Assembly: GCA_963787835.1 (NCBI GenBank)
Contig: CAWBEI010000002.1
Coordinates: 149,859-213,858 of the forward strand
Direction: 5' to 3'
Length of the DNA stretch: 64,000 nt
DNA from: Ignavibacteriota bacterium
Lineage (GTDB): Bacteria; Bacteroidota; Ignavibacteria; Palsa-1295
Shown: positions 3,102 to 55,550 of the stretch, piece after piece
Position numbering within the stretch: the first letter of the stretch is position 1
Layout: the number at the start of each line of letters is the position of its first letter
Notes under the pieces: model-generated
The model's input: the letters and a program-made list of their open reading frames with translations, nothing else
Databases searched by the model: none
What the model was told of the DNA's origin: nothing
Made by a program: the position numbers and the translations under genes

Positions 3102-4340
3102 TTATTGACACGCCTGAACGACCATCACCGAAATGCGGCGGTTCTGCGTGCGTTCTGCTTCGAGGTCCGAAGCCGATACGTCCGTTCGTTCGCGAACGGC
3201 TGGACGTGTGTCGCCATAGCCGATCGTGCGGGTGATCTTGTCCGGACTTACCCCTTGCGCGATCAGCCAGTCATGAATGCGCGTTGCACGACGCTCGGAG
3301 AGTTCCTGGTTATGCTCATGAGTCCCTTCCTCGCTTGCATACCCTTGAATCTCGACCTTGAGGTTCGGGCATTGATCGACCAAGGCTTTGATGTGGTAGA
3401 GATGACCCATATTATTTGGCTCCGCATTGTTGAACTGATCGCTGTTCACAATAAATAACGTCCCCGGGAAGTTAAATACAGTGTTGATCTTCGGATTCGT
3501 CAAATAGACGGTATCAGTCGGGTTCTGAATATACAGCGTATCGGTGTGATAGATGTTGTTATCCGTGCGGTAGTTATTCGTGTTATAGTTATTTGTTGTG
3601 TTTCCCTGGTATGGGGCGGGCGCAACCGGCACATCGGGCGAGAAGAGAACCACGCTGAACCCGAGACCCATGCTTAGGTATGCATCCTGGCTGTAAGCGG
3701 CTGGATTCGAGTAATCGTCAAGCCAATCGGTTCCTGTTAAGTGTATAAGTCCCTTGCCAACAAAAGCAACCTTGGGAGTAATGTAGTATTCAAAACCTAC
3801 GCCCAGGACACCGCCAACGACGTTTTTGCTATATGCATTGATGGCATTGTTTCTCAACGGGGTCGGAGATCCATCATCCGGTTGGAAGTTGAGTAGCTCT
3901 AATCCACCTACGAAATAGGGAACGAACGTTTGCGATGGAAAGACGTTGCCTGACAACATAAGATCCCATCCGCCAACGCGAGTTTGGTTTGTTGAGCCGA
4001 CCGGACCACCATCCGCGCCAGCGTTACCACTGCCTACGCCAGTTCCGGGGAGTAGATACTCGTTAGCAATGCTTTGTGTGGTGGATTTATAATGCAACAC
4101 ACCGCCATTATAGGCAGCATGAAGCGATAGCCAATCAAGGATGTTCCATCGGATGAATGCGTCGCCCTGCAAGGAAAACAGGTCGCCCGTATAATTACCG
4201 TAGTATTTATCACCTCCGGCATCGAAGCCGAAGGAAAGACTGCCAGGGATGACCTGTGCATGAGCCTTGGTGCCCATGAGGCCGAGCACACCGATTACAA
4301 GCAGCGCAAAGCTGCGATTCTTTAGATTTAGATTTTTCAC
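3102..4340 (-). CDS. OmpA-family outer membrane protein
   Basis: It has a signal peptide and an N-terminal beta-barrel region. The C-terminal OmpA_C domain is present (NAEPNNMGHL…LSERRATRIHDWLIAQGVSPDKI…RRISV). Confidence 0.8.
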   Translation of the reverse strand: MKNLNLKNRSFALLVIGVLGLMGTKAHAQVIPGSLSFGFDAGGDKYYGNYTGDLFSLQGDAFIRWNILDWLSLHAAYNGGVLHYKSTTQSIANEYLLPGTGVGSGNAGADGGPVGSTNQTRVGGWDLMLSGNVFPSQTFVPYFVGGLELLNFQPDDGSPTPLRNNAINAYSKNVVGGVLGVGFEYYITPKVAFVGKGLIHLTGTDWLDDYSNPAAYSQDAYLSMGLGFSVVLFSPDVPVAPAPYQGNTTNNYNTNNYRTDNNIYHTDTLYIQNPTDTVYLTNPKINTVFNFPGTLFIVNSDQFNNAEPNNMGHLYHIKALVDQCPNLKVEIQGYASEEGTHEHNQELSERRATRIHDWLIAQGVSPDKITRTIGYGDTRPAVRERTDVSASDLEAERTQNRRISVMVVQACQ

Positions 4341-4570
4341 GATTTTTTACTGTTTATGATAAAATGAGTTGAGTGAGCATTGCGCGTTCGAAGACGCAAG
4401 TGAAGAACCGACCCTTAGAGGTCTGGCTACTTACAAATAAGGCTTAGTAGAAGACGAATTGATTAGAGTCTGAATGATCGATCATCCAGATAGTTCCAAT
4501 CCGTTCTGCTCGAACAGGGTCTTGTGAGTAAGGAACAAACACCGTCGGCGATGGGCCTTCAATAGTTGTT

Positions 4571-4656
4571 CTCATAATTCTCTGATACAAAGTTACGGAA
4601 AGGGGCGTTGGAATGTGTTACAAAATTTTAGAAATAAGTTACATAATTCACACATT
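4571..4656. promoter_or_regulatory. conserved intergenic element copy 1 (core GTGTTACAAAATTTTAGAAATAAGTTACATAATTCACACATT at 4615-4656)
   Basis: One of six copies. It is ~275 bp 5' of the minus-strand OmpA-family gene and just 3' of 4730..4933. Confidence 0.5.
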
Positions 4657-4729
4657 CCGGTCGTTAGTTCGGCGCATGGGTTTCTCCTATCCCCATACGC
4701 CGAGGAATAACGATCGTTGGGTGTTATCC

Positions 4730-4933
4730 TTATCGGATATGAACCCCCAAGACGACTTTAGCGTGGTGACGACGGCGACGGCGGCGATGATGACGATAAT
4801 GAGGTGCAACCCTGACGCCTACGCCTACTCGGACTTGGCTTGCACTTGCGCTCGTAGTCCCAGAAGCGGTGAACTGCACCATTCCGAAGGCTAAAGCACA
4901 GAAAACGATCAGCCTGATTGTTAGATGTTTCAT
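4730..4933 (-). CDS. small secreted peptide with His/Arg-rich tail
   Basis: The signal peptide is MKHLTIRLIVFCALAFGMVQFTASG. The tail is HYRHHRRRRRRHH. Conserved element copy 2 lies ~110 bp upstream. Confidence 0.35.
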   Translation of the reverse strand: MKHLTIRLIVFCALAFGMVQFTASGTTSASASQVRVGVGVRVAPHYRHHRRRRRRHHAKVVLGVHIR

Positions 4934-5001
4934 TGTGTAGTTATGATTTAGATATATAAAGATAATATTTGTATGTGGAAGAATGTTTTCAATGAATTCC
5001 T

Positions 5002-5087
5002 CTCATATTTCTCTGGTACAAACTTACGGATTGAAGACATAAAATGTGTTACAAAATTTTAGAAATAAGTTACATAATTCACACATT
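5002..5087. promoter_or_regulatory. conserved intergenic element copy 2 (core 5046-5087)
   Basis: It is nearly identical to copy 1 over ~85 bp (ctcatatttctctggtacaaacttacgga…). Confidence 0.5.
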
Positions 5088-5152
5088 GAAGACCCCGCCG
5101 GTAAGGTGGGACCCCATGCCCCACCTCTTGTGAAATACAATACAATAAGTTA

Positions 5153-5872
5153 CTATCGTTTTCCGCCGCCCTTGGGCGCTCCGCCGCCTCTCGAAGCACC
5201 ACCACCTTTAGGGGCTGCGGCAGGCTTCACGTATCCTCTCCCATAATTTAAATTCTTGCTCGCAGCCGGCATGGAAGGAGTGATGGACTTCATTGGCACT
5301 TCATGTGCTACACGATGATATGTCGCAGGCGCATGATCGTTCTGGACCGGCCGCTGCATGAACGTCACGCGGTTACTATTCTCATTGAATGCTCGAGGAA
5401 CGAGCCGGTGACCTGGCGCAGTGTTCGTGACGATCCGGTTGCGAACGACAATGTCCGTGTAATTATCGTACCCATGCGATGGATAATTTCTGCGATAATA
5501 CCCCTCGTTCATCCACGGGCGAGAAATATTGCGGTCGATGAGCACCATAAACGCACCGCCCAGGTCAATACCTGCATATTGAGGTGGCAAGCCCTCGCTG
5601 TAGATCCACTCGCCGTTGGGGCCAGCGTACCAGAACTGACCATCCCACACGTCATAATACATATCGTAATCGGGAAGGTAATAATAACGCACGGAACTGG
5701 TATTGTCGTACGGTGGCGCCCATGATGGCGGTACATAGTTCTGAACATCGATGGAGGCGCCGATGCGGATCTGAGCCTCGCTTGAGTTTGTATAGAATGC
5801 GAGTGCGAATGTGAGCGCCAGAAAAACGGACGTTCTTCGTAACCGTAGGGATAGAATAGAATGTATTTTCAT
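5153..5872 (-). CDS. secreted hypothetical protein with Gly/Lys-rich C-terminus
   Basis: It has a signal peptide (…FALAFYTNSSEAQ). It is Tyr/Trp-rich and ends in a PKGGGASRGGGAPKGGGKR tail. Confidence 0.45.
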   Translation of the reverse strand: MKIHSILSLRLRRTSVFLALTFALAFYTNSSEAQIRIGASIDVQNYVPPSWAPPYDNTSSVRYYYLPDYDMYYDVWDGQFWYAGPNGEWIYSEGLPPQYAGIDLGGAFMVLIDRNISRPWMNEGYYRRNYPSHGYDNYTDIVVRNRIVTNTAPGHRLVPRAFNENSNRVTFMQRPVQNDHAPATYHRVAHEVPMKSITPSMPAASKNLNYGRGYVKPAAAPKGGGASRGGGAPKGGGKR

Positions 5873-5943
5873 AAGTATTATGTATTGTAACTGTTATAAT
5901 AGCGTTGGGGATATGATTTTTGATTGATTAACGACGTGTTCTG

Positions 5944-6186
5944 TCAGAAGAATAACTCTGGAATGTTGTCGTCATAATGCTTATCTACAAAGATTTGTCG
6001 TTGGGATTCAGATAGTGCAGCATCATCGGATGATGTCGCTGCACTCTTTTCAAATTCTGAATCTGTCGGAGGGTTCAAATTACTTGGAAGGTTTCCAAGA
6101 ATCTCGGATCTGGAATTCCGATGCTGGACCTCGTGATAACCAAGAAGCTGCATGAGACTGCGATTTCTTGAAGTACTATTTTTCAT
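5944..6186 (-). CDS. hypothetical protein
   Basis: 80-aa ORF in a co-directional gene array. No recognisable motif was found. Confidence 0.25.
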   Translation of the reverse strand: MKNSTSRNRSLMQLLGYHEVQHRNSRSEILGNLPSNLNPPTDSEFEKSAATSSDDAALSESQRQIFVDKHYDDNIPELFF

Positions 6187-6202
6187 AATTTTCTATATAT
6201 TA

Positions 6203-6505
6203 TTAATCAATAGAGAAATCGGTCGCCGAACTGATCCTGGATTTTATCTCACTTTTCAGCGATTCAAGCTTTTCCGTGAAGGCATCGCTCAGTTGCCCGA
6301 TACGATCTTCGATTGTTTCGGCTACATCATCAATAACGCCTTCCCCTTTGCGGCGAATAACTCTCCGCAACACGCTCCCCTTATAGGGAGAATAAAGCAT
6401 TCCCGCCGCAGCACCGATGGCCGCACCGGCTAAAAGACCGAGCAGGAGATTTCCACCGCTGTTCATGGAGTTCGAGTTGTGTCCGCAATGTTTGCATTGT
6501 TCCAT
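6203..6505 (-). CDS. YtxH-like protein (general-stress type)
   Basis: It has a Gly-rich amphipathic N-terminal segment (LLLGLLAGAAIGAAAGMLYSP) followed by a coiled-coil tail. An N-terminal CxxC is present. Confidence 0.45.
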   Translation of the reverse strand: MEQCKHCGHNSNSMNSGGNLLLGLLAGAAIGAAAGMLYSPYKGSVLRRVIRRKGEGVIDDVAETIEDRIGQLSDAFTEKLESLKSEIKSRISSATDFSID

Positions 6506-6660
6506 TAGAGCACCCTCCTTCCGCTGATAACTCTCATAATAATCGCAATGATCGCGATGACCAGGAGGATGTGGATCAGCGCACCTGCGCCATACACGAG
6601 GAACCCGAGTGCCCAGGCAATAATTAGGATTACTGCAACCAAGTATAATAAACTTCCCAT
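6505..6660 (-). CDS. lmo0937-family small membrane protein (51 aa)
   Basis: Own translation gives MGSLLYLVAVILIIAWALGFLVYGAGALIHILLVIAIIAIIMRVISGRRVL. It is not in the ORF track because it is under 60 aa. Confidence 0.5.
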   Translation of the reverse strand: MGSLLYLVAVILIIAWALGFLVYGAGALIHILLVIAIIAIIMRVISGRRVL

Positions 6661-6703
6661 AATGATTGTTTTAAATAAGTGAATAAAAATGTATTGAAAT
6701 GGC

Positions 6704-7117
6704 TCATTCGTAGCCGCTTTTGATGACCGTGAGGATCATTTTGAACCGCTCGTTGGCTCGAAAAATATTGGATTTGTGCGCAGGCAGAACGATACCCTCG
6801 CCCGTTTCAAGTAAATTCGATACGCCATCAATGACGATCTCGGCCTTGCCATCGATGATCTGAGCGAAGCTATCGAACGGTGAGGTTTTTTCCGTCAGGC
6901 CTTCACCCGTATCCAGCGACATGACGCTGATATTGCCCGTAGATTTCTTGATAATTGTTTTGCTAAGTACTGCATTCGGCACATACTCGATAATTTCCAC
7001 TATAATTACTCCTTTCGATTTTTCTAATTCATACGAATTTTTACTAATGGCCAGGTCTATCATGGGACTACTGACAACTTTTTTGCTTTCTAATTTTATG
7101 GGTTCGCTTTTTTTCAT
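6704..7117 (-). CDS. cupin-domain protein
   Basis: 137 aa. The pattern resembles a small beta-barrel of the cupin type. Confidence 0.4.
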   Translation of the reverse strand: MKKSEPIKLESKKVVSSPMIDLAISKNSYELEKSKGVIIVEIIEYVPNAVLSKTIIKKSTGNISVMSLDTGEGLTEKTSPFDSFAQIIDGKAEIVIDGVSNLLETGEGIVLPAHKSNIFRANERFKMILTVIKSGYE

Positions 7118-7135
7118 TTTAATAGGAGCAATGCA

Positions 7136-7738
7136 TTATTTAACGAAGAGCAAATTGTAATTCAAAACCAGCACATCGCCAACCTTCATCGTGCCCAAAA
7201 GGAAAGATGGTCGCTGGATATTATAATCTGAGAGATAGAGCGGCAGCGAGCCGGTGCATAAGATCGTGCCATCCTTATTGATGCACGCCGACGTTTTTAG
7301 TGTAGTAGGCTGGGTCACACCAGCCATCGTAAGATTACCATGAAGTAAGATCAGATAATGCTCGCTTCCACTTTTTATGAACATAGCAGAAGTCAGTTCA
7401 AAAACGATGTCCTTGAATTTATCCTCTTTTAGAGCTTTATAAGCACTCTTTTCCATTCCACGGTCTTCACTCATGAGATTGTGTACCGGCAAATTCAAGG
7501 AAAATTCCGAAACCGCACGTAGCTCATTATTCTCGCCGAAGCTAAATTTCGCAGAACCCGTGAACGCATGAGCAGTCATGCCCCAGTTATGCAACGGAGC
7601 AGTTCCTTTGATATTGATGACCGAATTGCTATCGACCGTGTAATTCGTTTGAGCATTTGTTGCATGAGGAAATGCAAAGCAAATCGTAAAACCGATGAGG
7701 AGGATAACTTTAAGTCTTACGATAGTGTCCGTTTTCAT
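7136..7738 (-). CDS. YceI-like periplasmic protein
   Basis: It has a signal peptide and YceI-like motifs (…HNWGMTAHAF…). It is a paralog of 8870..9469. Confidence 0.6.
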   Translation of the reverse strand: MKTDTIVRLKVILLIGFTICFAFPHATNAQTNYTVDSNSVINIKGTAPLHNWGMTAHAFTGSAKFSFGENNELRAVSEFSLNLPVHNLMSEDRGMEKSAYKALKEDKFKDIVFELTSAMFIKSGSEHYLILLHGNLTMAGVTQPTTLKTSACINKDGTILCTGSLPLYLSDYNIQRPSFLLGTMKVGDVLVLNYNLLFVK

Positions 7739-7750
7739 TAGATGGCAAAA

Positions 7751-7813
7751 ATACGGAGATCATCATCTGAAAGTGTTACAAAATTTTAGAAAAAAGTTAC
7801 ATAATTCACACAT
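7751..7813. promoter_or_regulatory. conserved intergenic element copy 3 (core 7773-7813)
   Basis: It is ~35 bp 5' of the YceI-like start codon. Confidence 0.5.
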
Positions 7814-7827
7814 TTTTCAAATTACGA

Positions 7828-8601
7828 TCACTTTGGTGACGGTTCAGGATTCTTCCCATAAATAATGACCTCTGTTTCGACAGGAGTTGTGCGAAACAAC
7901 TCGTCAGCAGCAAACATCGGAAGCCGGATGCAACCGTGGCTCCCTGGTATCGAAGGGACGCTGGGTTCGCCGTGTACGGCAAAACCGCCCGTAATGTACA
8001 TTGGGTCGAACATAATCCCCAGTGGACTTTTTTTCCAGCCCGTCACTTTGTGATAGATCTTAAATTTCCCGCGCGGCGTCCTGGCATATTCATTACCTTT
8101 TCCGGGATAATGGAATCGCTGTCCCGTGCCGGTCGAAACCGGCAGAACATGTACGACTCGATCGGTCGAATCCACAACGAGCAGGACTTGATCGTCGAGA
8201 TCGACTTCAAGATGATACGCATGGATAGAATCGTTTGGAACCGGAATAGATGAGCACATTATTTCCGCGATCGTCGAATCCGTAAGTGTCCCCGTTCGCG
8301 ATAGGCCGGAAAGCTTCTGAAATGCTACAATTGCCTGACGGTTTGCATCTTCCTTAGGCGAATAGGTCTTGCCGGCCCAGAAGTGAAGTTCGTAAAGCTG
8401 TGCGATAGCATAATCAATCCTCTCGTTTTGCAGAATGTTCGCAAATTGTCTTGCTACTGTTGACGATGCTGAATCAGCATGCGATGACTGTTGAGCAATC
8501 GCAGGATAGCTGCAAAGTACAAAAGAGAGTAAAAGAACATACCGCGTAGTTCTCAGCATTAATTCGTGGATATACTGGAAGGAGATTGATGGCAGCATCA
8601 T
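7828..8601 (-). CDS. L,D-transpeptidase (YkuD domain) with PG-binding domain
   Basis: The catalytic motif SHGCIRLP is present. A PG_binding_1-like segment is present (IVAFQKLSGLSRTGTLTD). It has a signal peptide. Confidence 0.75.
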   Translation of the reverse strand: MMLPSISFQYIHELMLRTTRYVLLLSFVLCSYPAIAQQSSHADSASSTVARQFANILQNERIDYAIAQLYELHFWAGKTYSPKEDANRQAIVAFQKLSGLSRTGTLTDSTIAEIMCSSIPVPNDSIHAYHLEVDLDDQVLLVVDSTDRVVHVLPVSTGTGQRFHYPGKGNEYARTPRGKFKIYHKVTGWKKSPLGIMFDPMYITGGFAVHGEPSVPSIPGSHGCIRLPMFAADELFRTTPVETEVIIYGKNPEPSPK

Positions 8602-8625
8602 GGATGATGTGCATCATGGTTGATG

Positions 8626-8850
8626 CTATGGCGCGACATTTTCTGGGACAGGCTGGCGCCGCTGACCACGCGGGCCTACCGACAGATCTTCACTCGCGAT
8701 ATAGATCACCATGGCAGTAACCATAAGGACTAAGAATACCCAAAAGCGCCAATCATGGTGAATGCGTCTCCATCGAGGCCGATGTGCTTCGATGGTGCTG
8801 TCGGTGCTTGGCCTTCCGGACTCGTTGTGATGATGTTTCGAATTTTTCAT
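8626..8850 (-). CDS. small membrane protein, hypothetical
   Basis: It has one TM segment (FWVFLVLMVTAMVIYIA). Confidence 0.3.
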   Translation of the reverse strand: MKNSKHHHNESGRPSTDSTIEAHRPRWRRIHHDWRFWVFLVLMVTAMVIYIASEDLSVGPRGQRRQPVPENVAP

Positions 8851-8869
8851 TGATTGATCCGATGGAGTT

Positions 8870-9469
8870 TTATTGAACGAAAATCAAACTATATGTCAAG
8901 GTAAGAGCATCGCCAACCTTCATCGTGCCAAGCATAAATGATGGGCGCTCGATACCATAATTCGAAAGTAATATCGGCACCGTACCGCTGCATGAAATAG
9001 AGCCATTCGAATTTACCGTCGCTAATACGATCAATGTGACCGGTTTCGTGACACCCGCAATCATAAGATTACCCAGCGCAGTTATTTTATACTTGCTTCC
9101 ACCCGATGAAGTGACCGTAGCGGATGTGAGCCTGAATGTAATGTTTGGGTTCCTATCTGCTTTGAGCGATTCATAAGCGTTGGAGTTCATTCCGTCGCTT
9201 TCGCTCTTGAGGTTATGGACCGGCAAACTGAGAGAAAGCGCGCTTATCGAGCTCAGTTGCTTGCTCGATGAAAGGCTCATCGTTGCATTGGCCGTGAACG
9301 AATTAGCTGTCATGGTCCAATTGTGCAGGGTCGAGGTCCCTGCGAGCGTCATTGCCGAATTGGAACCTATTTTATAGCTTGTTTGCGCATTCGATACGTT
9401 TGAATATACAATGCAAAGTATAAGAATAACGAGAAGGATCACCGCCTGTATTAAATTTCGGTCTTTCAT
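8870..9469 (-). CDS. YceI-like periplasmic protein (paralog 2)
   Basis: It is similar to 7136..7738 (…LHNWTMTANSF…VHNLKSE…). It has a signal peptide. Confidence 0.6.
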   Translation of the reverse strand: MKDRNLIQAVILLVILILCIVYSNVSNAQTSYKIGSNSAMTLAGTSTLHNWTMTANSFTANATMSLSSSKQLSSISALSLSLPVHNLKSESDGMNSNAYESLKADRNPNITFRLTSATVTSSGGSKYKITALGNLMIAGVTKPVTLIVLATVNSNGSISCSGTVPILLSNYGIERPSFMLGTMKVGDALTLTYSLIFVQ

Positions 9470-9526
9470 AATTTATTATTAGTTGTAATATTGAAGTGGA
9501 GTTTTAATACCTATTGAAATACTATT

Positions 9527-10294
9527 TTAACGTGCGGCATATCCGCCATCGATCACTAACTCCGAACCGGTCACGAACTTCGATTCGTCGGAGGCGAGGT
9601 AGAGGATCCCGAAGGCAATATCGTCCGGTTCGCCCAAATGACCGAGCGGATGCAATGCCACCAATGCCGCGCGGACTTCTTCCGCTTTGCCGTCTGTCTT
9701 AGCGAAATTCTCCACCATTGGCGTCCAAATAAATCCCGGATGCACCGAATTTACCCGAATTTTTTTCTTGGCGTAGGTCAGAGCATCGTTCTTGGTCATG
9801 ATCATAACAGCTCCTTTTGATGCATGATACGGCGGGACATCTGCGGCACCCACGAGACCGTAGATCGAGGAAAGATTGATAATGCTGCCACTACCCACCT
9901 TCAGCATATATGGGATGGTATGCTTTGTGCAAAAGAACACGCCTTTGACGTTCACATTCATAACCTTATCCCATTCTTGCTCCGTAAGCTCGTGGGTTGG
10001 TTTGTCCACACCGATAATTCCCGCGTTATTCACGAGTACATCTATTCGTCCCCACTTTGCAGCAATTTCCCCAATTACTTTGGCAACTTGGCTTTCATTC
10101 GTGACATCCAAATGCCAAAAGGCCGCTTCACCACCAGCATTATGTATGGCATCGACGGTGCCATTTTCTTGGCTAACCGAGACATCGGTAACAGCGACTA
10201 TTGCGCCTTCCTGTGCCAAAAGAATGGCCGTTGCACGGCCAATGCCCAACGCTCCACCGGTTACGATCGCTACTTTATTCTTTACTCTGTTCAT
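9527..10294 (-). CDS. SDR-family oxidoreductase (real start MNRVKNKVAIVTGG)
   Basis: The TGGALGIGRA Rossmann motif and NNAG motif are present, together with a YxxxK active site (YHASKGAV). The ORF extends artefactually to 10348. Confidence 0.85.
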   Translation of the reverse strand: MNRVKNKVAIVTGGALGIGRATAILLAQEGAIVAVTDVSVSQENGTVDAIHNAGGEAAFWHLDVTNESQVAKVIGEIAAKWGRIDVLVNNAGIIGVDKPTHELTEQEWDKVMNVNVKGVFFCTKHTIPYMLKVGSGSIINLSSIYGLVGAADVPPYHASKGAVMIMTKNDALTYAKKKIRVNSVHPGFIWTPMVENFAKTDGKAEEVRAALVALHPLGHLGEPDDIAFGILYLASDESKFVTGSELVIDGGYAAR

Positions 10295-10335
10295 TATATT
10301 ATTTATAAAAAGTACTTCTATGACTACGCAGCAAA

Positions 10336-10400
10336 AATACGGTGGCAACCTTCAAAAAACGTTGCAAAATTTTGGAAAAGAGTTACATAATTCACACATT
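10336..10400. promoter_or_regulatory. conserved intergenic element copy 4 (core 10361-10400)
   Basis: It is ~65 bp 5' of the SDR start. Confidence 0.5.
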
Positions 10401-10443
10401 CTCATCTAAAGCCTTGAAATGGGTATGATGCCTTCCTTTTCAT

Positions 10444-10656
10444 CTACCAATTTGTCCGCCGCCGAACAGATTTTCGGACTTCCTCCTCACCCTGCTCTGA
10501 AAAAGTTCTTCGCAGAGCAAATCTCGTCTTCATCTGATGTTCAAGTAATGAGTGGATATCCTCATTCGAGATCGGATTCTCGTCCTTTTCGTGAGCGGTA
10601 TTACCATCCTGTGCCGGCGGTTGGTTTTCTTCAGTTTTTGATGGTTCGTTGTTCAT
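10444..10656 (-). CDS. hypothetical acidic small protein
   Basis: 70-aa ORF. Conserved element copy 5 lies ~125 bp upstream of it. Confidence 0.3.
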   Translation of the reverse strand: MNNEPSKTEENQPPAQDGNTAHEKDENPISNEDIHSLLEHQMKTRFALRRTFSEQGEEEVRKSVRRRTNW

Positions 10657-10781
10657 TGCGTTCAGGTTGATTGAAGAACACGCGTTATCGTATGTTCAAA
10701 AAGATTGAAGATTGCGCTCGCGTGGGTTATTGAAGCAATGTTAAACCCGTTGAAACAATCACGATTACTACAAAACAAAAT

Positions 10782-10843
10782 TACGGCAATGGCCTTCAAA
10801 AGAGGTTACAAAATTTTAGAAAAAAGTTACAAAATTCACACAT
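10782..10843. promoter_or_regulatory. conserved intergenic element copy 5 (core 10804-10843)
   Basis: It lies between the start of 10444..10656 (minus) and the start of the AI-2E transporter gene (plus). Confidence 0.5.
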
Positions 10844-10947
10844 TTGCTTTTCTGACAGCACTGGCTGTAACGAAGTGGAAATCCTTACTGTTGGAACCAT
10901 CCTAATCATTAGATAAAAAAATTCTTAATACCTAATCCCAATCTTTT

Positions 10948-12045
10948 ATGCTGACGGAAATAGCGGTAGCGGATCCAGTGGCAGACCTCATCGTGTTGCA
11001 ACCGCAGCAGCGACATTATCTCATTCCTATTGCTATTGCGAGCGTGGTGGTCATCGGAGTGCTGCTTCATTTTGTCAGCAATATCTTTTTGTCCATTATT
11101 ACCGCGCTGTTCCTGGCAAATATCTTTATGCCGCTCGTCAGCGGGCTTCGCACACGGAAGGTGCCGATGATAATCTCAATTTTATTGGTGCTGGCGCTGG
11201 TTGGCGGCTTGTTCTTTGGAATTGCAAAAATTATCGGCGTGACGGTTGAATCCATCATTCTCGTGATGCCGAAATACGAAGCAAAGTGGGAAAATGTATT
11301 ATTGCCCCAAATCGCGGGGATCCTTGGGAACATCTCCGATGGCATGAGGAAGCAAGCGATGGATTTTAATCTGACATCCCTTGTACCATCTAACGAGATG
11401 GGTTCAGCGCTTTCTTCCGCCACGAATCTTGTGAGCGGCTTTGCTATTATTCTTCTAGCGATGCTTTTTATTTTAGCAGCGAATGGCCAGTTTAAGAAAA
11501 AGATCGGAATAGCATTTCCGAAATCAGGTTCGTTACAACTCACGCAGATCATACAAAACATTGAACGAAGCGTTCGGCGCTATTTAGTTACAACACTGAT
11601 CCTGAACACTTTAGCCGCAGTCACAATGACCGTTGTTCTGCTTCTTTTTGGTGTCGATCTTGCGTTCCTGTGGGGCATCCTGACTTTTTTACTGATGTTC
11701 ATACCCACCTTTGGCGGATTATTTGCTATTGTACTGCCCGTCTTAGCAGCATTCCTGCAATTCGACACCGTAAGCACTCCGATTCTTCTTGCCATCACGG
11801 TGATCGTGACTCAACTTATGATCGGCAGCGTTCTTACTCCGCGCGTAATGGGTTCGACGCTCAATATTAGTCCCTTGCTTATTATTGTATCGATCATTTT
11901 CTGGGGATGGGTATGGGGACTGCTTGGGATGATCCTTGCCGTGCCGATCACCTCGACCATCGCCATCGTCTTTCAAAACATTCCCGCTCTTACGCCAATC
12001 GCGGTGCTGATGAGCACCGATCCGGGAAAAGTCCGTTGGTATTAA
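10948..12045 (+). CDS. AI-2E family transporter (PerM/TqsA-like permease)
   Basis: It is a polytopic membrane protein of ~360 aa whose pattern is typical of the AI-2E family. It is the only plus-strand gene in the left 14 kb. Confidence 0.65.
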   Translation: MLTEIAVADPVADLIVLQPQQRHYLIPIAIASVVVIGVLLHFVSNIFLSIITALFLANIFMPLVSGLRTRKVPMIISILLVLALVGGLFFGIAKIIGVTVESIILVMPKYEAKWENVLLPQIAGILGNISDGMRKQAMDFNLTSLVPSNEMGSALSSATNLVSGFAIILLAMLFILAANGQFKKKIGIAFPKSGSLQLTQIIQNIERSVRRYLVTTLILNTLAAVTMTVVLLLFGVDLAFLWGILTFLLMFIPTFGGLFAIVLPVLAAFLQFDTVSTPILLAITVIVTQLMIGSVLTPRVMGSTLNISPLLIIVSIIFWGWVWGLLGMILAVPITSTIAIVFQNIPALTPIAVLMSTDPGKVRWY

Positions 12046-13691
12046 AAACCAACAACCTTACCGATGGATTTACGGAGTGCTAACCATATGAATTGGAAGA
12101 ACTCTTCATCTCTCGAATAGATATAGGTGGTTGTTCCTGAGATCGCTTTGTTGTTCCCGTTATCGACGTTATTCGTGCGAAGCACAAACGTATTCGCAAT
12201 AAATGATTGAATGCCTTCGAAAATACCGCTGTGATCTTTGACTTTGGTTGTAAGCACATTCATTGAAACATCTTCATAACGCGGTGCGACCGTGGTTATT
12301 CCAGTTCCAGCGTGAACATCCATTTGTAATGCTCCGCCTAAACATTTTCCTTTCATTATCTCTTTTCGCTCGTTCGTAACGAGATAGGAGTTCAGAGACG
12401 TTACATCGAACGGCCCGACGGTTGCATCGATGTGAAGATCGAACTGCTTTTGATGTACCGGATACACAACCGTCCCCAATACTTTTCCTTGCCCCATAAA
12501 AAATGCACTGACCGCAAAATGCAGGGGCTCGCTATAAAGCGAACTTCTAGTATCGGTACAGAATGGATGCTCAATAACTCGGACTTGCGTAAACGTTAAC
12601 AAGCTTGCGTGGGTACTTCCCGTGACACGTTCCCGGTGATGAATCGTCCCCTTGTTGAAAATGATCGAATCGAGCGTGATGGGCGCTTTGATCGAACTAA
12701 TGACCACATTGGGCAATACTGCATTCGGAGGGTGCGGATTTTTCGGTTTGCGGAGATCGCCATAGTAGTCCACGAACCATGATTCTGCCTCCAGTGACCG
12801 GACATGAAGCCCACCGCCCGCGAGCAGCTTCGTGAAATTGATGCCGCGAATATGTAATCCGGTACATTGGAAATCCAGCCTTCCCTGGGCATATTGATGC
12901 AGATCGGCAAAGGCTTGTTCGCTATAATTGGGCTTGTACTCGAAACTATCGATCGTTACAAGCGAATCCGATAAACTACCGTGGATACCTCGAACTTCGA
13001 TAGAATATGTGCTATCGCCGATAGAATAGCTCCCGGTAGGGAGTTCAAATCCTGCATTCTTAGAGAACAGTGCCGATTCGCCAGCGTTGCGACTTGGATC
13101 GAGAGAAAAATCGGTTAGCCGGATCGTAATGTTTCGATAAGATGGCACCATGTCATTTCCGGATGTCTTCGGCAGGAACACACTAATATCACGTAAGACA
13201 ATACTATCGAACGAGATAACGGGCACATCCGAAAGCGCAAATTTCTTCGCTGCAACGAATTTTGGAATGCGTGGTAGCGTGATCCCCGTATCAATATCGG
13301 TCATGTATAGCTTTGGTGCGTTCAGCTCCAGGGTGCTCAAGTTCAAATCTTTTTGCCAGAGCACGTCCCACCAATCGATGCCTTCGAACCTCGCGCTATC
13401 GAGCGTGATCCGTTCGAGCACCACGCCATGCTCACCGCTATCGTAGGCGATGCGGTAAAGAATGAAGGTATTGCACTCCAGCGTGCCATGCTTGTAGAAG
13501 ATCTTATCTAAGGTAAGTGCAAACCTGCCGTGCGTTGATTTCAGCACAGCTTGTTCTATTTTTGGAATGACGGCTTTATTAAGTGTACTTTCAAAATAGA
13601 AGGTGAGAAAAACCCAAATTGCAAGCAACACCACAACAACGATCGAGCCGAACGTGTAGAGGATCGGCTTGAGTAGCGATCGTTTTTTCAT
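12042..13691 (-). CDS. AsmA-like / DUF748-type envelope protein
   Basis: It has a single N-terminal TM segment followed by a large beta-rich periplasmic region (549 aa). Confidence 0.4.
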   Translation of the reverse strand: MKKRSLLKPILYTFGSIVVVVLLAIWVFLTFYFESTLNKAVIPKIEQAVLKSTHGRFALTLDKIFYKHGTLECNTFILYRIAYDSGEHGVVLERITLDSARFEGIDWWDVLWQKDLNLSTLELNAPKLYMTDIDTGITLPRIPKFVAAKKFALSDVPVISFDSIVLRDISVFLPKTSGNDMVPSYRNITIRLTDFSLDPSRNAGESALFSKNAGFELPTGSYSIGDSTYSIEVRGIHGSLSDSLVTIDSFEYKPNYSEQAFADLHQYAQGRLDFQCTGLHIRGINFTKLLAGGGLHVRSLEAESWFVDYYGDLRKPKNPHPPNAVLPNVVISSIKAPITLDSIIFNKGTIHHRERVTGSTHASLLTFTQVRVIEHPFCTDTRSSLYSEPLHFAVSAFFMGQGKVLGTVVYPVHQKQFDLHIDATVGPFDVTSLNSYLVTNERKEIMKGKCLGGALQMDVHAGTGITTVAPRYEDVSMNVLTTKVKDHSGIFEGIQSFIANTFVLRTNNVDNGNNKAISGTTTYIYSRDEEFFQFIWLALRKSIGKVVGF

Positions 13692-13730
13692 TTTTGTAAC
13701 GGTAGGATTATTCAGCGAGTGGCTAATTTA

Positions 13731-13807
13731 CCACCAGTACAAAGATATGAAATTCAACCGAAAGACACGTTACAAAATTTTAGGAAAAAGTTACAAAATT
13801 CACACAT
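13731..13807. promoter_or_regulatory. conserved intergenic element copy 6 (core 13769-13807)
   Basis: It is ~75 bp 5' of the AsmA-like start. It overlaps the stop codon of the AraC gene. Confidence 0.5.
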
Positions 13808-14360
13808 TCTCAAGTCCACCCATCCTTTTATGCTTGATATTCTTAAAAAAGGTAGGAGTGAGTCCGGTGATCTTCTTAAATTGATTCGAAAGCGCTGCTA
13901 CGCTGCTATAATGAAGCCTGTACGATATTTCTGTGAGCGAAAGCTCGTCGTAAATAAGCAACTCCTTTGCTCGTTCGATCTTATGCTTGATAATGAATTG
14001 CTCGATCGTCGTGCCCTCGACTTCTGAAAACATATTGGCAAGATAGGTATAGTCGTACTTTAACTTTTCGGTTAGGTGATCGGACCAATTTATTCTCAGT
14101 GCTTCGTCGGAATAATGGATGGTTTCGATGATAACCTGCTTGATCTTTTCGATCAAAATAGCTTTCTTATCATCCATCAGCTCCAGCCCGGACCGTTTTA
14201 AGACACGGGTCAATTCGATGCGTTGCGCCGGAGATATAGGTCCTGGAATCTCCACTTCTCCAAGATCGACGGTGGTATAAGGAAGGCCGAGGGTTTCTAA
14301 CTCGGCGATCACCACCATCTTGCACCGGATGCTCACCATGTACTTAACGTACAGCTTCAT
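13800..14360 (-). CDS. AraC-family transcriptional regulator
   Basis: The C-terminal HTH_18 signature is present (…LTEISYRLHYSSVAALSNQFKKITGLTPTFF…). Confidence 0.85.
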   Translation of the reverse strand: MKLYVKYMVSIRCKMVVIAELETLGLPYTTVDLGEVEIPGPISPAQRIELTRVLKRSGLELMDDKKAILIEKIKQVIIETIHYSDEALRINWSDHLTEKLKYDYTYLANMFSEVEGTTIEQFIIKHKIERAKELLIYDELSLTEISYRLHYSSVAALSNQFKKITGLTPTFFKNIKHKRMGGLENV

Positions 14361-14872: not shown

Positions 14873-15333
14873 GTATTCTCGGTTGCTTTAAGTAAAAAGG
14901 AATCTTCGGCTAACAAAAAGATGGGATAAAAAAAACCCCGGGTGGTGAGAGTTACCCGAGGTCTGATTGAGTTGTGTTGTGTCTTCAAAAAGCCGGAGGT
15001 TGTCCCTAGACCCCGGCTAACTCTTATGCTATGAAGCTTATCTTCTGCTTTCTAACAAACGTTTACGCCCGATACGGATTCGTGTTACACTTTGGGTTGA
15101 ATTTCTGCGAAAATCTCCTGTTTTTTCTTTTAGAAGTGTTCAATAATGGACTCGTTATGGCATATTTGAGCAATTCCCGGGCCAATTCAGCTTGGACAGA
15201 CTTTTAACGTTTATCGTCAGTGCAATCACCCTGAATTCTACAATATCAGACACGCTTATTAACACGCGAACCTGAAAAGTGTTGCATTAAAAGTCATCTC
15301 TTTTGCAATATTATTTGAAATTAATATTCCCAG

Positions 15334-16893: not shown

Positions 16894-17706
16894 TCATTTC
16901 AAAATAGCCTCTAATCCTTTGCAGCCATTTTTCACGGCAAGGTCATACGGTCGATCACCCGCATCATCTTTCACATTCTTGTTCGCTCCATATTCCACAA
17001 GTAGGTGTGCTGCTGAAGTATCGCACTGCTTAGCGGCTTGGTGTAAGAACGTGTCACCATTCTCATAGTGTATAGACGGATTTGGTGTGGCACCAAACTT
17101 TAATAATATCTGAATAATTTGGAGATCGTTAGCGCGACGTGTGTCACCAGTAGTATCATGTTGTTCGATTTCGATATCCTTCTGCTTTAGTGTATTCATT
17201 CTGTGACTCTCGGAAAGAGCGAACCAGAGTGGCGTAATGTTATGTGGAGCAATAAAATTTGGATTGGCTCCATTGTTAAGAAGGAAGAAAATCATCTGAA
17301 TATTTCCTAAAAAGATCGACTGTATTAGAGGTGTTATACCAGACGAGTCTGGAAGATCCACACTCAGCCCGTGTTCAATTAGATATTTTGCGGCAATAAA
17401 TCTATTAATCGATACGCAGTGACCAATTAGCGATCCACCGAGAGTTGGGCAACGTGATTGAATATCAGCGCCGTGATTTAAAAGAATATTAATCATTAAA
17501 GTATCATCCTTATCTACTGCCCACTCTAAAGGACTGCTTCCGAACTGGTCTCGTTCATTTGGATTTGCACCCTCGTTTAGCAATTTTTCAACAAGCTGAT
17601 AATTTTGCCTGTTTATTGCACGATCAAGAAGCGGCGGCTCTTGCGAACGCGAACATACAGTACAGACTATGAGCAAGAAAAAACAAATAATAATTTGACG
17701 CATCAT
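16894..17706 (-). CDS. ankyrin-repeat protein with signal peptide
   Basis: Multiple ANK repeats are present (…GANPNERDQFGSSPLEWAV…LLNHGADIQ…). Confidence 0.8.
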   Translation of the reverse strand: MMRQIIICFFLLIVCTVCSRSQEPPLLDRAINRQNYQLVEKLLNEGANPNERDQFGSSPLEWAVDKDDTLMINILLNHGADIQSRCPTLGGSLIGHCVSINRFIAAKYLIEHGLSVDLPDSSGITPLIQSIFLGNIQMIFFLLNNGANPNFIAPHNITPLWFALSESHRMNTLKQKDIEIEQHDTTGDTRRANDLQIIQILLKFGATPNPSIHYENGDTFLHQAAKQCDTSAAHLLVEYGANKNVKDDAGDRPYDLAVKNGCKGLEAILK

Positions 17707-21385: not shown

Positions 21386-21787
21386 CTACTTCAATAATGC
21401 GACAAAACCAGCTTGCTCAAAATGTTTATCGCCGGTGAGCGCTTCTTTAATACCCTGATCGCGCATGACGATAAAGGATGTGCAGTCTGTAAGTGACCAT
21501 TCTTTATCAGAATGTCGATGATAATAATGGAGAGCATGGTCGAAAAGATCTCGACTGGCTTCGAGTACTTCACAGTGAGGTAGTGATCTTAAATAAAGGA
21601 AATAGTCGCGTGCTTGATCGCGTACTTCTGAACCGGCTAAAGCATCCGCTACTTCCATCAGTACCCAGTCGGTTGTGACGAGACTGGCCCGCATGGTTTT
21701 TGAAAACTCAATCACACGATCGTGATGTTGATCCTCCTGATTGATCCGAGCAATGAAATAATAAGCATCAGCAAAAAATACTCTCAT
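21386..21787 (-). CDS. PIN-domain toxin (VapC-like)
   Basis: 133 aa with a PIN acidic-residue pattern. It overlaps the upstream small gene by 4 nt. Confidence 0.7.
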   Translation of the reverse strand: MRVFFADAYYFIARINQEDQHHDRVIEFSKTMRASLVTTDWVLMEVADALAGSEVRDQARDYFLYLRSLPHCEVLEASRDLFDHALHYYHRHSDKEWSLTDCTSFIVMRDQGIKEALTGDKHFEQAGFVALLK

Positions 21788-22005
21788 TTTTTCGGATGCC
21801 CGTGGACGTAATGATCGATATTCGCCGCTAAGTCTGGCGGAAGATCAGTAGCAATGCCATCCCATTTCTTTAGCATTTCGTACAGCGTAGGGATTTCTTC
21901 CTCTTCAGGTATCACGCGCACGGTCATCCCATCCGGCCAGTCCACGTCAGGCGGCATGACAACGTGGCCTTTTTCGATTTTCGCTGTTATTGGTTGGTAT
22001 GTCAT
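21784..22005 (-). CDS. putative antitoxin (VapB-like) partner of the PIN protein
   Basis: 73-aa ORF upstream of and overlapping the PIN gene. This is the canonical TA arrangement. Confidence 0.5.
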   Translation of the reverse strand: MTYQPITAKIEKGHVVMPPDVDWPDGMTVRVIPEEEEIPTLYEMLKKWDGIATDLPPDLAANIDHYVHGHPKK

Positions 22006-24115: not shown

Positions 24116-24667
24116 ATGCTGGAAACCATAGAAAAACGGGCAACGATCCAGGACTACGAGCGTCTCGAAGAAGGTGCGCCCTATCAACTGATTGGCGGAG
24201 AATTAATTATGACCCCGAGTCCCAGCTTTTTTCATCAGAGAATTCAATACCGACTTGCAAATGCACTCGGTACCTTCGTTGAGAAGAATAGACTCGGTAT
24301 TCTTGTCGGTGCACCGCTCGACGTCTATTTAAGCGATGAAGATGTCTATCAACCCGATCTCATCTTTATTCGCGCAGACCGGGCACACAATCTCCAAAAA
24401 GATAAGCTCCATATTATCCCCGATCTTGTCATTGAAGTGCTTTCATCTTCCACGGCTTATTATGACTTTACACGCAAGAAGGAAATGTATTGCACGCACG
24501 GTGTATCGGAATATTGGATCGTTGATCCTGAAGCCGAAACAATCGAAATGATGGTCAAGCGCGGTGAGATTTACCAAACGGAACAATTGCTGCACAAAAC
24601 CGGTACATTGGAATCCTCGATGTTTCCTGCCTTTAGCATGAAAATACAGGACGTTTTTGAATTCTAA
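24116..24667 (+). CDS. Uma2-family endonuclease (DUF820)
   Basis: The motif …YQLIGGELIMTPSPSFFHQRIQYRL…QPDLIFI… is present. Confidence 0.75.
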   Translation: MLETIEKRATIQDYERLEEGAPYQLIGGELIMTPSPSFFHQRIQYRLANALGTFVEKNRLGILVGAPLDVYLSDEDVYQPDLIFIRADRAHNLQKDKLHIIPDLVIEVLSSSTAYYDFTRKKEMYCTHGVSEYWIVDPEAETIEMMVKRGEIYQTEQLLHKTGTLESSMFPAFSMKIQDVFEF

Positions 24668-55478: not shown

Positions 55479-55550
55479 AGCAATGAAACAGCAAGAAGTG
55501 AAGTTTTGTCATTGCAGGCTCCGAGTGCATAATTTGTGTGTTACAAAATA

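Follow-up and report, generated by a model that had tools for sequence, protein, structure and literature searches.

The 64-kb stretch of an Ignavibacteriota genome analysed here (contig CAWBEI010000002.1; hereafter the window) carries six copies of one intergenic element, all in one orientation within 9.2 kb and each ahead of a gene or operon on the minus strand. We consider it probable that these copies are activator-dependent promoters of the primary sigma factor, with a tandem operator bound by a 186-aa AraC-family regulator with a predicted HMA-like N-terminal domain, and that they control about 17 envelope and stress genes. The gene of this candidate regulator adjoins the sixth copy, and the same motif was found, in the same register with its promoter box and in part of the loci beside a homologous regulator gene, across a large group of bacteria.

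Anatomy of the six putative promoter copies

Five copies match a 42-nt core with zero to three mismatches, where shuffled sequence expects none, and the fourth copy, at 10361-10400, is the most diverged of the six. A repeat search aligned all of them in a single register over 87 nt. On a weight matrix covering the core and the -7 box, trained on 121 sites from other genomes, the six copies scored 62-69 bits; the runner-up position in the 64 kb reached only -4 bits and the best of 30 shuffles -1.4 bits, so the window holds exactly six sites and no weak extras. An earlier note on this DNA had described six copies in one orientation, which pattern search, shuffles and weight matrix all confirmed, and had found copies 1 and 2 alignable over about 85 bp, for which we obtained 86% identity across 87 nt. 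The "partial copy" that it placed near 55525 proved to be a lone 13-nt half-site with neither partner nor -7 box and with no weight-matrix score.

Because the neighbouring genes are all on the minus strand, the element is read in the minus direction. In that reading each copy has the form AATG-TGTGAATT-W-TGTAAC-N15-TGYAAC-N21-TAnnTTTG (6/6), such that TGTGAATTNTGYAAC-N15-TGYAAC is followed, exactly 21 nt on, by TAnnTTTG in every case. The two direct TGYAAC half-sites stand 21 bp apart, start to start, in all six copies, in agreement with the direct GTTACA half-site repeats about 21 bp apart that had been noticed before; the extended repeat consensus seen in the 121 sites is RARTTRTGTAAC. One helical turn upstream of the distal half-site there is a TGTG, the distance from TGTG to TGTAAC being 10 bp. 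In addition, a "TACGG box" had been placed upstream of the core at a fixed spacing. The fixed spacing holds in five of the six copies, but the box is the reverse complement of CCGTA, that is, the start of the -7 box with two flanking bases, and, read in the direction of transcription, it follows the core.

Mapped start sites of Flavobacterium psychrophilum place TAnnTTTG at -12 to -5 (PMC9723704), and the predicted starts in Table 1 follow from this placement. With the -7 box so positioned, the proximal half-site would occupy about -39 to -34, and the centres of the two 15-bp sites would fall near -41 (proximal) and -62 (distal). As in the Bacteroidota primary-sigma promoter (-33 TTTG / -7 TAnnTTTG), the -7 box is exact in 6/6 copies; unlike in that promoter, TTTG is absent from the place expected for the -33 box, 19-21 nt upstream of the -7 box, where GTAAC(A) of the proximal half-site is found instead, and the TTTG inside AAAATTTTG is 25 nt from the -7 box. 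A good -7 box without a -33 box is the anatomy expected for dependence on an activator.

Conservation of the motif and its linkage to an AraC-family gene

Public genomes, one per species, were scanned with the pattern GTTRCA-N15-GTTRCA-N-AATTCACA (38 bits), which returned at least 120 loci with 121 sites against about four chance matches estimated. By record title, the loci listed belong almost all to Bacteroidales, Chitinophagaceae, Flavobacteriales, Cytophagales, Sphingobacteriia, Ignavibacteriota, Kapaibacterium and Chlorobiales (the Fibrobacterota-Chlorobiota-Bacteroidota, or FCB, group), the exceptions being one Methanothrix contig and two small contigs in proteobacterial bins. The element ranges over gut Bacteroidales, soil Chitinophagaceae and Ignavibacteria, and among its cultured carriers are Sunxiuqinia indica (L081) and Mucilaginibacter sp. 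UYP27 (L038). The sole archaeal match, at 6334-6369 of L023, a Methanothrix metagenome-assembled genome (MAG), was rejected as an accidental GTAACAGGTT-type tandem repeat with no -7 box or downstream gene.

The loci were picked by the motif pattern, and only positions that it does not require count as evidence of conservation. At such positions before TGTG (AA-G), the 121 sites have A at -3 in 103 cases and G at -1 in 88; a non-required A between the blocks is present in 88/121, and AARTTR precedes the proximal TGTAAC. The -7 box recurs at a fixed offset (A in 100/121, T in 114/121, T in 114/121, T in 84/121 and G in 65/121), nAnnTTTG being conserved through the 121 sites. Furthermore, an ATG open reading frame (ORF) of at least 40 aa starts 30-130 nt downstream of 88 sites, with a sharp peak at 40-80 nt, compared with 25 of 121 and a flat distribution in the reverse-direction control. 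This orientation bias indicates a promoter-proximal regulatory site and not a mobile repeat. The pattern search with strand and start-codon distance that the earlier note had suggested, run here on other genomes, thus found the element oriented towards genes. The shared promoter or operator proposed in that note is supported by conservation, register and orientation; the regulon is not merely "local", as it had been called, since Bacteroidota, Ignavibacteriota and Kapabacteria carry the motif.

The close relatives of the window are MAGs labelled Ignavibacteriota. In one of them (L121), whose AraC protein is 96% identical to that of the window, the orthologous promoters keep 39-40 of 40 core positions, 7-8 of 8 positions of the -7 box and 14-19 of 21 nt of the spacer. 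The ranges for core and -7 box apply to two related MAGs, with flanks that diverge or are unrelated; a comparison of orthologous intergenic regions in relatives had been proposed in the earlier note. Where synteny differs in L121, no similarity extends upstream of AATG, and AATG is thus the start of the unit. A second relative has 10 distinct copies in an island of about 33 kb together with two AraC paralogues; its copies share one orientation, and all have the exact -7 box 21 nt after the operator.

The motif is also linked to a regulator gene. A tblastn search with the window's AraC protein gave full-length homologues, which extend to the N-terminus and are mostly 55-68% identical, in 27 of the 120 listed loci (874 kb in total), where about 0.2-0.5 regulator genes per 874 kb would be expected by chance at one or two copies per genome; the co-localisation is thus about 100-fold over chance. 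In the listed loci about 15 sites lie directly upstream of the regulator gene, and of the 104 proteins encoded directly downstream of the motif, 11 belong to AraC/HTH_18, more than to any other family. At least 10 loci (L009, L011, L014, L018, L047, L051, L058, L070, L081 and L119; several others have truncated versions) show the order motif, AraC gene, hybrid PAS-HisKA-HATPase-REC kinase, single-domain receiver. Of the proteins in the recurrent cassette, only AraC is of a DNA-binding kind; in these full versions it belongs to the MVSNRC subtype described below. The co-operonic receiver has no output domain; as the regulator has no receiver domain, any phosphorelay control would need protein-protein contact. 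An Hpt-like ORF (L119 5541-5909) or a CheB/CheR-like fusion (L018 3180-5771) stands between the cassette genes in some loci. In addition, motif and gene overlap: the TGA inside TGTGAATT is the AraC stop codon in the window (13800-13808), in L121/L122/L123 (10557), in L073 (1857) and in L096 (5945), as well as in both paralogues of a related MAG, and the AATG extension of the motif encodes the conserved ...LENV at the C-terminus, an arrangement that recurs in several distant genomes. Phylum-wide conservation, the fixed -7 register, orientation and the roughly 100-fold co-localisation together support the earlier suggestion of a shared promoter/operator with the adjacent AraC protein as candidate regulator.

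The 186-aa protein matches Pfam HTH_18 and HTH_AraC. It starts MKLYVKYMVSIRCK, and many genes directly 3' of the motif in other genomes start (M/L)KLYIKYMVSNRCK. Its AlphaFold model (predicted local distance difference test, pLDDT, 90.8) has an N-terminal beta-alpha-beta-beta-alpha-beta domain, a linker helix and a seven-helix AraC domain with a double helix-turn-helix. The top Foldseek matches in the PDB were the DNA-binding domains of AraC, MarA, SoxS and Rob (1bl0, 1xs9, 7w5w, 1d5y); the first matches outside the AraC family were HMA proteins (2roe, 4y2i GolB, 1fe0 HAH1, 4a47), which covered the full length of the domain with target template-modelling (TM) scores of 0.58-0.69 and weak E-values of 0.07-0.4. 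HMA domains combine a beta-alpha-beta-beta-alpha-beta fold with an MxCxxC motif in the loop between beta1 and alpha1. The corresponding loop of the regulator is MVSIRC (M8-V-S-I-R-C13), with Ser in place of the first Cys; a few homologues have MVCxRC instead, and Cys13 does not vary in the family. The Pfam HMA model gave no match for the N-terminus, and it is from the fold pattern and the weak Foldseek matches that we predict an HMA-like domain.

The regulator has at least 8000 homologues, each with E below 1e-10, and in those listed, which are 68-96% identical, there is little or no variation in the helix-turn-helix residues and Cys13. NCBIfam holds no specific model for the protein, giving only partial, below-cutoff matches to generic AraC-family models, and a sequence search of the PDB returned AraC-type DNA-binding domains only. 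Many genomes have two regulator paralogues, one of the window type (MVSIRC or MVSLRC, tail LENV) and one with MVSNRC and the tail IEDI, and the two are often neighbours, separated by a copy of the motif (L033 5021-5578 and 6250-6807; L096 5389-5946 and 6055-6423; L122/L123).

Proposed mechanism and alternative explanations

In the mechanism that we propose, the proximal operator half would stand in for the -33 TTTG beside a canonical -7 box. One double helix-turn-helix domain would occupy each repeat, reading TGTG and TGTAAC one turn apart as in the marbox, and two subunits would lie on one face of the helix, 21 bp being two helical turns, with the dimer held by the HMA-like N-domain. The proximal subunit, near -41, would supply the missing -33 contact and recruit RNA polymerase; sites near -41 and -62 would be the classical class II and class I activator positions. 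Binding would then lead to activation rather than repression, and the six promoters would jointly switch on the approximately 17 envelope and stress genes. The signal is a matter of speculation: the invariant Cys13 could respond to metal or redox state, possibly controlling dimerisation, and elsewhere the co-operonic hybrid kinase and receiver may provide the input. This mode of binding and recruitment is modelled on what is known of AraC (I1-I2), RhaS, XylS and MarA (PDB 1bl0).

AraC-family activators typically use tandem direct repeats with a 21-bp spacing that border on the -35 region, and as a kind of element, a promoter joined to an AraC-type activator operator is already well known. Like E. 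coli AraC at araBAD (I1-I2), RhaS/RhaR and XylS, the present system combines an AraC-family protein, encoded by a linked gene and carrying two helix-turn-helix motifs, with two direct half-sites about two turns (~21 bp) apart on one helix face, and the proximal site overlaps the -35 region of a promoter without a good -35, here at the missing -33; by analogy, this points to activation by a dimer. Unlike AraC, whose N-domain is a sugar-binding cupin, the candidate is modelled with a 65-aa HMA-like ferredoxin fold, and unlike at araBAD there is no evidence of a distal site for looping, the promoter belongs to the -33/-7 type of the Bacteroidota, and the genes belong to envelope and stress functions instead of catabolism. 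With MarA, SoxS and Rob the candidate shares the double helix-turn-helix domain, an asymmetric site of two elements about 10 bp apart (TGTG ... TGTAAC), a dispersed stress regulon including envelope genes, and sites at class I and class II positions. MarA and SoxS, however, are monomers that use a single marbox in either orientation, whereas two tandem sites of fixed orientation and spacing and an extra N-terminal domain are found here. The system also resembles the regulons of sigma-B (Bacillus), sigma-S (Escherichia) and EcfG-NepR-PhyR (Alphaproteobacteria) in its overlapping gene content (YtxH, CsbD, YdaD-type SDR, OmpA-like, Dps/bacterioferritin and universal stress proteins), in having one promoter signature before many small stress genes and in its link, in many genomes, to PAS histidine kinases and a receiver. 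Those systems rely on alternative sigma factors, whereas the present promoters have a primary-sigma -7 box and would take their specificity from the upstream activator site.

Several points weigh against the AraC protein as the binder. There is no motif directly upstream of the AraC gene in the window or in close relatives, so autoregulation is not evident in this lineage; the co-localisation is correlative only, and its chance expectation depends on the assumed copy number; conservation at the required positions is circular, because the loci were selected by the motif pattern; and in the many genomes with two paralogues the binder of the motif is not distinguishable between them. Another DNA-binding protein might therefore read the operator, with the AraC gene being a frequent target or neighbour within the regulon. 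We regard this as unlikely, since the AraC protein has no DNA-binding companion in the cassette, no other regulator family recurs among the 120 listed loci, tandem 21-bp repeats at -35 are typical of AraC activators, and the extreme conservation of the regulator's helix-turn-helix matches a near-invariant DNA motif. Considerably less probable still is that the copies are promoters of an extracytoplasmic function (ECF) sigma factor, with TGTAAC as the -35 (AAC) and CGTA of the "TACGG box" as the -10. TGTAAC does resemble ECF -35 boxes, and in 5/6 copies of the window, as in 9/10 of a related MAG, the TA of the -7 box has CG in front of it. In ECF promoters, the distance from the -35 AAC to the -10 CGT is usually 16-17 nt, and the sigma and anti-sigma genes are usually nearby and autoregulated. 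Here the two lie 19 nt apart, neither a sigma nor an anti-sigma gene is present near the island or recurs among the 120 listed loci, and the CG of the window lineage is not conserved phylum-wide: CGT (positions 55-57) is unconserved in the 121 sites, whereas nAnnTTTG is conserved. The ECF reading would also leave unexplained a second, equally conserved half-site and the TGTG 21-35 bp further upstream.

The earlier note had kept as its alternative a miniature inverted-repeat transposable element (MITE), and a mobile or selfish intergenic repeat of this or another kind, with no regulatory role, is effectively refuted. Six near-identical copies in 9 kb, with extra flank similarity between copies 1 and 2 and between 4 and 5, do suggest duplication. 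Yet the copies have no terminal inverted repeats or target duplications, all six point the same way before genes, sites elsewhere show the 88 versus 25 bias, orthologous positions are kept between related genomes, and conservation across phyla combines a variable spacer with a fixed promoter-box register. We likewise reject a sigma-70-like promoter on the plus strand (GTTACA-N17/19-CATAAT), also raised previously, and a structured RNA made from the element. One weak consensus match on the plus strand falls at copy 4, and a plus-strand gene lies downstream only at copy 5; the orientation statistics point the opposite way, and Bacteroidota-type primary sigma factors do not use TTGACA/TATAAT (PMC9723704). 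A scan for sigma-70 and terminator consensus stayed at background level, such a consensus being uninformative for the Bacteroidota promoter type. As regards RNA, Rfam gave 0 matches in the whole 64-kb window, and the element is upstream of the predicted start on the functional strand.

The island, its growth and the putative wider regulon

Table 1. Predicted promoter units and targets, candidate regulator and island in the window (positions in nt from the first letter of the window; cores given as written on the plus strand)
Feature	Position	Strand	Weight-matrix score (bits)	Core (+ strand)	Half-sites	-7 box	Predicted start near	Predicted target or content	Proximal half-site to first plausible start codon (nt)
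Promoter unit 1	4588-4656	-	68.9	4615-4656	AATG+TGTGAATT 4645-4656; distal TGTAAC 4638-4643; proximal TGTAAC 4617-4622	TAACTTTG 4588-4595	4583	Leader of ~243 nt (with doubtful 43-aa ORF 4444-4575) and OmpA-family gene 3102-4340	277 (GTG 4340)
Promoter unit 2	5019-5087	-	65.4	5046-5087	distal 5069-5074; proximal TGTAAC 5048-5053	TAAGTTTG 5019-5026	5014	Gene of 67-aa secreted His/Arg-rich peptide 4730-4933	115
Promoter unit 3	7746-7814	-	68.1	7773-7814	distal 7796-7801; proximal TGTAAC 7775-7780	TATTTTTG 7746-7753	7741	Likely operon: YceI 7136-7738, cupin-like 6704-7117, YtxH 6203-6505, 5944-6186, 5153-5872	37
Promoter unit 4 (most diverged)	10332-10400	-	61.9	10361-10400	distal TGTAAC 10382-10387; proximal TGCAAC 10361-10366	TATTTTTG 10332-10339	10327	Likely operon: SDR 9527-10294, YceI 8870-9469, 8626-8850, YkuD L,D-transpeptidase 7828-8601	67
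Promoter unit 5	10776-10844	-	66.0	10803-10844	distal 10826-10831; proximal TGTAAC 10805-10810	TAATTTTG 10776-10783	10771	70-aa hydrophilic ORF 10444-10656	149
Promoter unit 6	13740-13808	-	65.5	13767-13808	distal 13790-13795; proximal TGTAAC 13769-13774	TATCTTTG 13740-13747	13735	549-aa membrane-anchored protein 12042-13691	78
Candidate regulator	13800-14360	-						AraC family, 186 aa (Pfam)	
Putatively controlled island	3102-13691	-						About 17 genes in six predicted transcription units	

The predicted units of Table 1 are bounded by gene spacing only. Their content comprises an OmpA-family protein, the His/Arg-rich peptide, two YceI proteins, a cupin-like protein, YtxH, YkuD, SDR, the 549-aa protein and small ORFs. 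Pfam identified OmpA, YtxH, the two YceI paralogues, YkuD, SDR and the AraC-family protein as well as an AI-2E transporter on the plus strand; the OmpA, YceI, SDR and AraC names given previously are thereby upheld, and the 549-aa protein, which had been called AsmA-like, has no Pfam match. Several small or unidentified ORFs of the island have no family match in Pfam or NCBIfam. The AI-2E gene (10948-12045) falls within the span of the island but is downstream of no copy, and unit 5 faces away from it. The SDR gene starts at ATG 10294 and not at TTG 10348, and the OmpA-family protein has a signal peptide when read from GTG 4340. The mRNA of unit 3 would be nearly leaderless, because its predicted start is about 3 nt before the YceI ATG at 7738, and this arrangement is also kept in L121.

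The 67-aa ORF behind unit 2 encodes a signal peptide and a C-terminal HYRHHRRRRRRHH stretch and has its own promoter copy; no homologue of it was found in the 120 listed loci, Pfam or NCBIfam. The two YceI paralogues, 1734 nt apart, share 144 nt at 72% DNA identity and belong to separate motif-driven units; their presence together in the island indicates gene duplication inside it. Judged from the 86% identity over 87 nt, unit 2 is a recent duplicate of unit 1. Additionally, copies 1 and 2 as well as 4 and 5 are alike beyond the functional blocks, and the N15 spacer is nearly constant within the window lineage (TTTTTTCTAAAATTT), so the promoters were also propagated by duplication as the island grew. 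In this lineage the promoter was probably copied together with its early transcribed region. In L121 (10626-14279) and L123 (10626-14281), the promoter that overlaps the AraC stop codon would drive genes for a P-type cation ATPase, a DUF2934 protein and a PPK2 polyphosphate kinase. The window island has none of the three, and island content therefore varies among near relatives.

Outside the island, on the minus strand, a 460-bp intergenic region without ORF (14873-15333) contains two GC-rich hairpins followed by T runs (~15020-14990 and 14965-14925), with a lone TGTAAC and a -7-like AACGTTTG (~15095-15060) 5' of them. The region could be a small RNA or the leader of a thioesterase/AraC transcript; Rfam gave no match in it. 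A degenerate look-alike of the motif was seen by eye 5' of this thioesterase/AraC pair (~15250-15310 and 15085-15095) and was rejected, as it does not score. Unrelated genes further along the window encode an ankyrin-repeat protein (16894-17706), a PIN-domain toxin with a small upstream ORF (21386-22005) and a Uma2-family endonuclease (24116-24667).

Among the 120 listed loci, the families that recur are hybrid kinases (32), AraC (27), OmpA/glycine-zipper (22), ice-binding-like (21), ABC exporter (14), YtxH (13), MlaE (11), MlaD (11), receiver (11) and AI-2E (10) proteins, joined by Holin-X-like proteins, outer-membrane beta-barrels, cupin and DUF748/AsmA proteins; inspection by eye added CsbD, universal stress protein, bacterioferritin and a PRC-barrel protein directly 3' of some sites. 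The OmpA, YtxH, cupin-like, YceI and AI-2E genes of the window belong to the same families as those found beside the motif elsewhere. Ice-binding-like (DUF3494) secreted proteins, several with sorting tails of the type IX secretion system (T9SS), rank among the most frequent products encoded behind the motif, nine of them directly downstream, and may point to a connection with cold, freezing or surface stress. Taken as a whole, the regulon content resembles the general-stress and envelope regulons of other bacteria.

No description of the motif, of the HMA-like AraC regulator family or of a phylum-wide stress regulon was found in the searchable full-text literature, from which most subscription journals are absent, so that this absence is not proof. 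The finding offers a precise cis-element, whose 40-bp core keeps a fixed register to the -7 box, together with a candidate regulator with an unusual sensor domain and a candidate phosphorelay. It also gives a first regulon list (OmpA, YtxH, CsbD, YceI, Mla, AsmA/DUF748, AI-2E, ice-binding-like and small membrane proteins). Regulon prediction with the motif is already feasible in any genome of the group, and the motif might yield a strong inducible promoter part for the engineering of Bacteroidota. To our knowledge, Bacteroidota and their relatives are without sigma-S, sigma-B and EcfG, and how they coordinate general and envelope stress responses is poorly understood. We tentatively suggest, as a possibility short of an even chance, that the motif, the HMA-like AraC protein and, in many lineages, the co-operonic kinase and receiver constitute a master switch for general or envelope stress in Bacteroidota, Ignavibacteria and Kapabacteria, a counterpart of sigma-B, sigma-S and EcfG that would act through an activator of the primary sigma factor and receive its input by a degenerate metal-binding fold (Cys13), a phosphorelay or both. 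The element may mark the general or envelope stress switch so far missing for the Bacteroidota group.

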